A stretch of DNA of 64,000 nt from a virus. Taxonomy: Duplodnaviria > Heunggongvirae > Uroviricota > Caudoviricetes. The position numbers and the translations under genes were made by a program. The DNA lies in IMG/VR virus record IMGVR_UViG_2880372215_000004. One strand, 5' to 3'. The notes under the pieces were generated by a model, which was not told the origin of the DNA, ran no database searches, and saw only the letters and a list, made by a program, of their open reading frames with translations. Within the stretch, counting starts at the first letter, position 1. Every line of letters starts with the position of its first letter. Positions 59,669 to 60,976 of the stretch are shown here, one piece after another.

Positions 59669-60127
59669 TGTTTTTGGTTTTAACTGTTCCGCGTGCGCTT
59701 AGCCGCATTCACCGCATCACAAAATTCACTTTAAAAAGGGCGGCAGAGCAGCCACGGAGTAAAACTGATACCGCCAAACGTCACCAGAAAATTGATAACA
59801 GAGGGCGTTGCAGCGGGGTTGTCACTTAAGCGTATGGTCAACCTGACAACCCGGTGTCCTCAATGGGGAAGGAATAACCCCGCCATACTTACCGCCGCGC
59901 CATTTCGCGGAGTGCCACAACCGGAAGCGCACGTTCGAAGAAATCTAACGACAAGCCTTCTAAGGGAAAGAGCTTCGCCGTACGCTTTCGCGTTATGCAC
60001 TGACTTTTCAGGGAAATATCCTTTCAGTAAACTGTCAGTACCGGATTCTTATCCGTGTCCGGCGCACGACCACACGTGACAGCGTGTTGGTCTCCATTTT
60101 TAACCCAGAACCTCAATGGAGGATAAA

Positions 60128-60337
60128 ATGCCAAACAAAAAAAGAAATCCGCTTATTGAAAAACAGATTGAATGCCTGGTAAATCAACTCAGGCAATCAG
60201 GGTTATTAAAAACTCATTCAGAGTTGAGGCTCACAGAATCAGCATTCGACGATAAATTAAATAATGTCCTTTATAATGGCATTATTGATTTTAATCGTTC
60301 TGTTGGTCGCCGCGGCCCTGCTGGTGTTTCCTTATAA
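60128..60337 (+). CDS. hypothetical small protein, 69 aa
   Basis: ORF 60116..60337; GGAGGA 5 nt before ATG 60128. Confidence 0.5.
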   Translation: MPNKKRNPLIEKQIECLVNQLRQSGLLKTHSELRLTESAFDDKLNNVLYNGIIDFNRSVGRRGPAGVSL

Positions 60338-60976
60338 TTACCAGTCAATCCAGAGTGGACCGTGTTCAGCGTAAATATAACTGTACACATCCAGATTATA
60401 TTTGTGGTCTGTTAAGAACAGGCCGCAAATACATGCCGAAGCTTCCAGTGCAGCGGCTCTGTTACTGAATAACCATGTAGCAACATTCCAGCGTTTTTCT
60501 GCATCCCAGTCTTTCTCAAGGCCTGATACCATGAAGAAACCGTTAGTGTTGCCATCAAATAATTCTGTTTCCAAATTTTTAAGCAATGCCTGATGGACTC
60601 TTGCCAGGTATTCCGCCGGAATTTCGCCACGAATTCTGATGAGATTGTCATAAACAAACATGTTCCCCGCATATGGCGATTTTTCTTTCTTGTTTTTTAA
60701 ACCAGCATCATGAGCAAACTGATCAATTTCTTCTTCCGTTGGTTTCGTATTGATGTTTTGCGCTGTCGTTTCTGCAATTTTATTTGCCACACTCTCTGAG
60801 TCGTGTTTATTTATAGACGCACAGAAATACAATCCGGTAAACGCATCGCGCACATTACGAGCCATATTATCAGTGTCTTTTTTCGTTACCGATTCCAATT
60901 CAAGTTCGTTCAGACGATGACGAAGTGTGTGTGCTGCAATCTCCTGGATTGAAGGAGGTAAATCTTTAAATTCCAT
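60338..60976 (-). CDS. unknown 212-aa protein at the position sieB occupies in prophage 1
   Basis: ORF 60338..60988; GAGG before internal ATG 60976; no motif recognised. Confidence 0.6.
   Translation of the reverse strand: MEFKDLPPSIQEIAAHTLRHRLNELELESVTKKDTDNMARNVRDAFTGLYFCASINKHDSESVANKIAETTAQNINTKPTEEEIDQFAHDAGLKNKKEKSPYAGNMFVYDNLIRIRGEIPAEYLARVHQALLKNLETELFDGNTNGFFMVSGLEKDWDAEKRWNVATWLFSNRAAALEASACICGLFLTDHKYNLDVYSYIYAEHGPLWIDW

Follow-up and report, generated by a model that had tools for sequence, protein, structure and literature searches.

The stretch of DNA analysed here (the window, 64,000 nucleotides (nt) of IMG/VR virus record IMGVR_UViG_2880372215_000004, Caudoviricetes) holds two prophages. 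Where prophage 1 has the superinfection-exclusion gene sieB, the second prophage has a convergent pair of open reading frames (ORFs) encoding proteins of 69 and 212 amino acids (aa). We find that the sieB position of Rac/Qin-type lambdoid prophages, within their early-left operon, is truly a variable slot. The pair forms a mobile cassette, one allele of this polymorphic slot. Between conserved ends, the variable cargo is the C-terminal domain of the larger protein together with the small partner gene, a cognate-pair design undescribed before. The two genes are as follows.

60128..60337, plus strand: 69-aa basic soluble protein (ECs2212, WP_001133037.1, phrog_4274); an ORF with GGAGG 5 nt upstream
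60338..60976, minus strand: 212-aa acidic protein (ECs2211, WP_000394548.1, phrog_2151, "Ybl81"); third gene of the early-left operon

These coordinates and the convergent layout match exactly those given in a preliminary description of the window. The stops abut (TAA/TTA at 60335-60340), both ORFs have good Shine-Dalgarno (SD) sequences, and RefSeq lists each as a "hypothetical protein." An alternative in-frame ATG at 60116 would extend the small protein to 73 aa and falls inside the SD region (GGAGG at 60118-60122); we prefer the start at 60128, with which RefSeq agrees. Both ORFs are real genes under purifying selection. Compared with alleles that are ~85% identical (dS 0.31-0.38), the 69-aa ORF has a ratio of nonsynonymous to synonymous substitution rates (dN/dS) of 0.23-0.27, and its differences number 5, 8, and 12 at codon positions 1, 2, and 3, the third position being the richest. 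For the 212-aa ORF, dN/dS is 0.19-0.28 overall, 0.14-0.16 in the C-terminal domain, and 0.3-0.7 in the N-terminal part. These values bear on the alternative that the 69-aa ORF is untranslated and that an antisense RNA or the leader structure alone matters. Conserved leader hairpins would fit such an explanation, as would the control of P22 sieB by the antisense RNA sas (PMC7067206), but the dN/dS of ~0.25 with its third-codon-position bias, a protein motif 42-52% identical in Salmonella-type loci despite diverged DNA, and a strong, correctly spaced SD sequence make it exceedingly improbable.

The conserved ends of the slot are the leader of the plus-strand gene and the DNA encoding the N terminus of the large protein, which divides into three parts.

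60036..60127, plus strand: conserved leader of the plus-strand gene, with hairpins at 60038-60065 (invariant) and 60068-60092, CUCCAU at 60092-60097, and GGAGG at 60118-60122
60803..60976, minus strand: N-terminal module, residues 1-58 (MEFKDLP..IQEIAA..NVRDAFTGLY), a predicted helical hairpin common to many phage proteins with unrelated C-termini
60689..60802, minus strand: acidic linker of low complexity (residues 59-96), showing much variation and many indels when aligned, with an isoelectric point (pI) of 4.55 and a lower predicted local distance difference test (pLDDT) score
60341..60688, minus strand: C-terminal alpha/beta domain, residues 97-212 (strand-strand-helix-strand-strand-helix-strand), the most conserved part, which co-diverges with the 69-aa gene

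The small gene is preceded by 90 nt that are kept in loci with a wholly different plus-strand ORF, including one of 64 aa in Escherichia coli 55989, an unannotated one of ~100 aa in RM10042, and one of 77 aa in PPompW phages. A scan of IMG/VR for the first leader hairpin returned at least 120 loci; among the matches listed, 51 have an SD sequence and start codon 82-88 nt after the hairpin begins. The ORFs behind the leader are 57-94 aa long and belong to at least 10 unrelated families, and each alternative plus-strand ORF checked is its own PHROG family. At least seven of these plus-strand families each oppose a specific C-terminal variant of a protein with the MEFKDLP N-terminal module (106-212 aa), and in those seven pair types the stops overlap by 0 to 44 nt. 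Other occupants of the slot, among the matches listed, are ydfB/ydfC (~37 loci) and an N-module protein that has no partner (~19 loci). The breakpoints of recombination map to the leader at one end of the slot and to ydaF/N-module DNA at the opposite end; E. coli 55989, for instance, shares only 60824-60990 with the window, at 97% identity. Because the conserved leader and the conserved N-module DNA serve as the breakpoints, the slot is framed by two facing conserved 5' ends. In E. coli O43 RM10042, the ~100-aa ORF (phrog_8894; L164:2048-2362, plus strand) starts from the same leader and SD sequence and runs into the 3' end of the gene for a 122-aa N-module protein; RefSeq apparently missed this ORF.

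On the protein side, PHROG families 1363, 9419, 6937, and 33007 (phrog_1363, phrog_9419, phrog_6937, and phrog_33007) match the N-module alone, over residues 1-50/75. Approximately 45 of 51 representative matches to the 212-aa protein span only positions 1 to ~60, and dozens of short phage proteins with unrelated C-termini match the module. On the RNA side, the invariant hairpin has the sequence GCCGGAU...GUGUCCGGC, and the second hairpin varies in sequence among leader types A, B, and C with the pairing always kept. The CUCCAU element is complementary to AUGGAG at the SD sequence and lies ~25 nt upstream of it, and the window leader folds more stably than shuffled sequences (z = -2.9). Together, the predicted folding and the anti-SD element suggest translational control of the plus-strand gene. 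However, the folding energies of the two strands are similar and favour neither of them, and ydfC-type loci with no plus-strand ORF contain the first hairpin as well. Rfam holds no family for this conserved leader. The same leader is found at L163:2039-2135, L164:1967-2064, L008:1588-1680, L002:6815-6915 (minus strand), and L003:7040-7135 (minus strand). Whatever its role, the leader together with the N-module is a search handle for the whole cassette family in genomes.

The 69-aa and 212-aa genes are a co-inherited unit, as expected of an accessory (moron-type) cassette. IMG/VR contains 79 loci with the large gene, and in 74 the small gene is convergent and abutting; the remainder comprise two contig ends, one deletion, and two loci with another ORF (L084 and L085). 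Leaving aside the contig ends, the small gene is thus present at 74 of 77 usable loci, and the large gene accompanies the small one at 74 of 74. The large gene can also be truncated, as at L088. Within E. coli, the identities of the C-terminal domain and of the small gene covary with r = 0.98, and the N-module is reshuffled, showing 45-100% identity on the same C-domain and small-gene allele.

The family is limited to prophages of Escherichia and Salmonella. The cassette occurs in 565 of 5,426 complete E. coli genomes (~10%), mostly those of Shiga toxin-producing E. coli (STEC). A scan of GTDB species representatives found no relative, and deposited phage genomes contain no full-length homologue, only N-module proteins. 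In an exhaustive profile search, the C-domain appeared in only two other clusters, P0151 (220 aa, Salmonella) and P0147 (286 aa), where it is 31-39% identical to that of the window protein and is preceded by a different N-terminal domain. The genes of both clusters lie in another prophage backbone, directly after a Cox-like gene and near int and the repressor. After each comes an overlapping ORF of 64-69 aa in convergent orientation, whose product shows 42-52% identity to the window 69-aa protein, the motif common to the window and the Salmonella-type loci being IEKQIEC..SGLLK..GRRGPAGV.L. It is these deep relatives in another backbone, rather than the IMG/VR counts, that form the stronger evidence for a unit. 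Two further observations concern these relatives. In P0147 (L003:6001-6861), a CI/Cro-type HTH_3 domain is inserted between the N-terminal domain and the conserved C-domain, and it resembles the N terminus of the CI-like repressor of the window (61433-62071). At L004:7783-7870 (plus strand), Rfam identifies a C4 antisense RNA (74 bits); it and a protein of the "Derepression" family are encoded ~0.8 kb from a homologous pair, and together they look like a P1/P7 immI-type antirepressor module beside the cassette.

The distribution of the pair also bears on the explanation that the two genes are functionally unrelated hitch-hikers, adjacent only through mosaic recombination at the flanking conserved sequences. 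The breakpoints do fall clearly in the conserved leader and the N-module/ydaF DNA, as in E. coli 55989, and the co-divergence is explicable by adjacency alone. Set against this are the same abutting convergent pair at ~35% identity in another backbone, with other flanks and another N-domain, and the seven other plus-strand ORF families, each with its own specific C-terminal partner. We regard hitch-hiking as highly unlikely.

The position of the slot is defined by its flanks, which had been described beforehand as homologous to prophage 1. Three blastn stretches, at 78-88% identity, bear this out: 59579-59776 against 6249-6453 of prophage 1 (78%), 60995-61125 against 7168-7296 (86%; ydaF/DUF1391), and 61153-61306 against 7465-7611 (88%). 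The slot in prophage 1 holds sieB, as had been stated, and the left flank, which had been called kilR-like, is actually the DicF small RNA (sRNA) followed by dicB, as identified by Rfam and Pfam.

6548..7159, plus strand: sieB of prophage 1 (203 aa), occupying the equivalent slot and sharing its strand with the 69-aa gene; Pfam SieB E 3e-31
59738..59789, minus strand: DicF sRNA, full length; Rfam RF00039, 75 bits against a gathering score of 48
59375..59563, minus strand: dicB, cell-division inhibitor, downstream in the same operon; Pfam DicB PF05358 E 2.7e-36 and RefSeq annotation
59790..60035 (ordinary leader stretch to 60068), no strand assigned: dicF-upstream leader of Qin-type phages, partly also in the P1 ban leader ("dicF-like region") and not specific to the cassette

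Because 59790-60068 is the ordinary dicF-upstream leader of the Qin type, the replaced cassette is narrowed to approximately 60069-60987. A cassette-specific noncoding RNA at 59790-60068 was considered and ruled out, the stretch being common dicF leader that is also found in Qin-type phages and partly in P1; an Rfam scan of this region returned DicF only. In prophage 1, the segment at 6249-6453, upstream of kilR, is 78% identical to the DicF-containing flank and scores below the DicF gathering threshold. The Qin dicB operon (ydfA-ydfB-ydfC-dicF-dicB) shares the downstream half (dicF leader, DicF, dicB, and DUF1482) as the same module and differs in having ydfB and ydfC where the window has the convergent pair; the upstream half of the window operon is Rac-like (ydaF). 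Whatever the function of the pair, the annotation thus gains a slot that is a dicF/dicB-ydaF mosaic, with the 69-aa ORF as the equivalent of sieB.

Upstream of the large gene lie the start of the early-left operon and its presumed control region.

60988..61140, minus strand: ydaF-like DUF1391 gene, directly upstream of the 212-aa gene; Pfam DUF1391 E 1e-29, 86% DNA identity to ydaF of prophage 1
61320..61348, minus strand: candidate early-left (pL-like) promoter TTGACC-17-TAAACT, downstream of the repressor gene; from a consensus scan only
61433..62071, minus strand: CI-like repressor with helix-turn-helix (HTH) and S24 peptidase domains; Pfam Peptidase_S24 E 8e-13, HTH_3

The ydaF stop is 11 nt from the start of the 212-aa gene, and the CI-like repressor should control the operon. 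The repressor ORF is an intact 212 aa in the window (61433-62071) and also at L001:10034-10672; the RefSeq/Sakai annotation gives only a 339-bp C-terminal "LexA family/repressor" coding sequence (ECs2209), the N-terminal HTH part having seemingly been omitted.

Genomes of O157:H7, O121, and other STEC are 100% identical to the window over 59400-61500, and O157:H7 TR01 matches 53588-64000 at 99.9%, identifying the window as STEC-type E. coli chromosome. The counterpart in O157:H7 Sakai is prophage Sp11, in which ECs2210 is the ydaF-like gene, ECs2211 the 212-aa gene, ECs2212 the 69-aa gene, and ECs2214 dicB. Its int and recE are pseudogenes, indicating a defective prophage. Elsewhere in the window, Rfam matches lie at 1557-1735 (plus strand), 20119-20311 (plus strand), and 20312-20373 (minus strand), and these comprise the RalA antitoxin sRNA of prophage 1, STnc100, and the anti-GcvB sRNA AgvB; two tRNA genes were also matched (19097-19169 and 19273-19346, plus strand). 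A whole-window repeat scan also found a 162-nt-period repeat at 32973-33578, with three tandem copies that are 88-90% identical.

Family searches assign the two proteins to PHROG clusters over their full length: the 212-aa protein matches phrog_2151 (E 1.8e-147, 212 of 212 positions) and the 69-aa protein phrog_4274 (E 1.2e-51, 69 of 69 positions), both listed as "unknown function." The statement that the 212-aa ORF has no recognisable motif agrees with searches of Pfam, NCBIfam, and PADLOC, all of which returned nothing for it. Neither protein matched Pfam, the best hit being P33MONOX at E 0.12, under its cut-off, and neither matched NCBIfam or PADLOC-DB v2. The same three databases gave no homology to toxin or antitoxin families for either protein, and profile searches of the PDB with both gave noise only (E > 0.1). 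With four alternative cargo proteins and with the distant homologues, Pfam, NCBIfam, and PADLOC yielded nothing useful; PADLOC gave no match to the cargo proteins and homologues beyond HTH matches in P0147. Judged by these sequence comparisons, the pair belongs to no PADLOC system or toxin-antitoxin family. Profile and fold searches with the 212-aa protein found no housekeeping or structural family either, so the idea of an anti-phage function survives as a possibility. In the literature, no mention of ECs2211/ECs2212, ybl81, or the WP accessions was found under any identifier, literature searches around sieB and ydaF/ydaG/kilR likewise gave nothing on the two genes, and broader ones on sieB, prophage hot spots, and lambdoid exclusion gave nothing on this slot.

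SieB is a membrane protein of ~160-200 aa, and the pair is not a SieB, as both the profile and the membrane-segment tests fail. Neither ORF matched the SieB profile at E <= 1. No membrane segment was found in either protein, the maximum 19-residue Kyte-Doolittle mean reaching 0.22 in the small and 1.16 in the large protein (usual membrane threshold, 1.6). The proteins are of opposite charge: the 212-aa protein has a pI of 5.2 and a net charge of -10, the 69-aa protein a pI of 9.7 and a net charge of +3.6, and this acidic-large/basic-small pattern is kept in the Salmonella homologues. The modeled C-domain is predicted to be a small alpha/beta sandwich like the ACT and ArgR-C binding/oligomerisation domains and fits no catalytic family. 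A Prp/YsxB-like cysteine protease fold was considered from weak BFVD matches (TM-scores 0.36-0.48) and rejected; the putative catalytic pair, Cys182 and His205 of the E. coli proteins, is not conserved in the Salmonella homologues.

The resemblance to ACT and ArgR regulatory or oligomerisation domains is one argument for a phage development or host-takeover module, in which the N-module protein would act early, as a regulator or by binding a host factor (for example, as an antirepressor-like or operator-competing protein), and would be tuned by the antisense-encoded small protein and its transcript; alternatively, these two would keep leaky read-through from reaching the toxic dicF-dicB genes. 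In both backbones the large gene is an early-operon gene straight after the lysis-lysogeny switch, P0147 carries its CI-like HTH_3 between the N-domain and C-domain, and the leader, kept whatever ORF comes next, could serve transcriptional interference. However, extreme polymorphism with cognate pairs is unusual in core regulators, and the cassette is dispensable, being absent from Rac/sieB-type and ydfBC-type relatives. Moreover, the plus-strand ORFs are under protein-level selection and form distinct PHROG families, so the transcript alone is an insufficient explanation. Overall, we consider such a module unlikely.

The layout of the locus instead leads us to propose, tentatively and as a possibility on which we place somewhat less than even weight, that the genes are a cognate pair for phage-against-phage conflict, combining exclusion with self-escape. 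The 69-aa gene, not the 212-aa gene, is the positional and strand analogue of sieB. The preliminary description had put the weight on the 212-aa ORF. Since the large gene begins 11 nt after ydaF in an operon downstream of the CI-like repressor, it should be silent in the lysogen and expressed early after induction or infection; lying in a repressor-controlled operon, it is therefore less likely to be a lysogen-expressed exclusion factor than its 69-aa partner. Because it lies antisense to the early-left operon, the small gene is probably expressed in the lysogen; genes placed antisense to lytic operons typify the accessory (moron) loci of prophages that are expressed in lysogeny (PMC7067206). 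A scan found no terminator-like site between the convergent genes, and transcribing either gene is therefore expected to disturb expression of its neighbor. That the proteins bind each other is suggested by their cognate co-inheritance, complementary charge, and non-enzymatic folds, and the allelic diversity suggests conflict between related phages.

From this we infer the timing of expression, the physical binding of the two proteins, and the anti-phage role as follows. In the lysogen, the CI-like repressor would shut the early-left operon, including the 212-aa gene, and transcription of the 69-aa gene would come from the other strand, passing through the conserved leader of that gene. The 69-aa protein would act as a lysogen accessory factor, most likely hindering superinfecting relatives. 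Upon induction or infection, early-left transcription running antisense through the small gene would silence it and at the same time yield the 212-aa protein, whose C-terminal alpha/beta domain may bind and neutralise the cognate small protein. The role of the 212-aa protein would then be self-escape or immunity, with a logic comparable to that of P22 SieB and Esc, and diversifying pressure between competing phages could have produced the many cognate pair types. The earlier suggestion that a different anti-phage function occupies the slot remains plausible.

The same features can be read as a toxin-antitoxin-like or abortive-infection pair, in which the small basic protein, or else the large one, would inhibit growth and be neutralised by its partner, so that the cassette would stabilise the prophage or kill infected cells once the balance is upset. 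Two small co-inherited genes, one basic (the 69-aa protein) and one with an acidic product, recall many type II pairs; the large gene is present at all 74 small-gene loci, and the neighboring dicB/DicF and ydaS/ydaT-type genes are toxic prophage genes. This explanation is made quite unlikely by the convergent layout, which forms no operon, by the lack of any match to a toxin or antitoxin family or to PADLOC, and by the loss of the small partner in L084 and L085 and truncation of the large gene in L088; a further difficulty is the awkward design, in which the putative toxin would be made with its putative antitoxin shut off in a repressed operon.

Several points weigh against a cognate exclusion/escape pair. 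No fold in the PDB or BFVD links either protein to a known exclusion or defence system, and Pfam, NCBIfam, and PADLOC provide no sequence link to a known defence, exclusion, or toxin-antitoxin protein. At L084 and L085 (2 of 77 loci) an unrelated convergent 211-aa ORF replaces the small gene and the large gene is kept, so the partnership is not obligatory; N-module proteins that have no convergent partner also exist, such as a 124-aa type and the one in Stx2a phage PA2. The loci used for co-occurrence are mostly near-identical STEC prophages, so their counts are not independent, and adjacency alone could yield the co-divergence of C-domain and small gene. Because the host prophage is defective, with int and recE as pseudogenes, selection cannot act there on a role in lytic growth. 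Finally, a consensus scan for a small-gene promoter gave nothing convincing; a candidate at 60100-60129 was rejected, as it overlaps the start codon. As for the ORF that replaces the small gene at L084 (4532-5167, minus strand) and L085, it belongs to phrog_1244 and has a coiled coil and CxxC...CxxC motifs.

A more specific form of the exclusion/escape proposal, which we hold to be doubtful, is that these are polymorphic "lock-and-key" pairs for kin discrimination by lambdoid prophages, each lysogen-expressed small protein blocking incoming phages whose early N-module protein lacks the matching C-terminal domain. The N-module and the structured leader would then be a common chassis. If this is true, the pairs would be a new class of phage-against-phage exclusion/immunity, and E. 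coli alone would have at least seven specificities. Were the pair to act in the proposed way, very small, non-enzymatic, allele-specific exclusion/escape modules would join the known forms of prophage-encoded immunity, and, given its prevalence in STEC, the cassette could affect which Shiga toxin (Stx) or other lambdoid phages establish or recombine there.

Among known systems, SieB (Rac, lambda, and P22; PF14163) shares the location: it occupies the slot between kil/dicB-type genes and ydaF, and the 69-aa gene has the same orientation as sieB, opposite to the early-left operon. SieB with P22 Esc and sas also resembles the proposed model in lysogen-expressed exclusion, escape of the phage itself, and an antisense RNA. 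The 69-aa protein differs in being soluble and basic with no sequence similarity, whereas SieB is membrane-bound, and Esc is an internal product of sieB, whereas the putative partner here is a separate convergent gene. Type II toxin-antitoxin systems are likewise two small co-inherited genes of complementary charge on a mobile element, but the genes here are convergent rather than in a co-directional operon, match no family, and can be separated. Prophage defence hot spots offer a likeness of another kind, a fixed slot with many unrelated cargo genes, as at the variable P2 and P4 hot spots (PMC9122126) and in BstA-type genes beside prophage repressors. Here, however, the cargo consists of tiny proteins that have no PADLOC match, and the slot itself supplies a conserved leader and an N-terminal coding module. 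The architecture is paralleled by polymorphic toxin-immunity cassettes (CdiA-CT/CdiI, Rhs, and phage MuF toxins), in which a conserved N-terminal region precedes a variable C-terminal domain that is swapped with a small adjacent cognate gene, giving many alleles at one locus. In the window, by contrast, the partner is convergent instead of following in the same direction; secretion, MuF, and toxin domains are absent (no Pfam domain at all), the products are small cytoplasmic proteins, and the locus lies in a repressor-controlled early operon. From sequence, then, the pair is best described as a prophage accessory cassette at a variable slot that shares the architecture of polymorphic toxin-immunity systems but not their domains.

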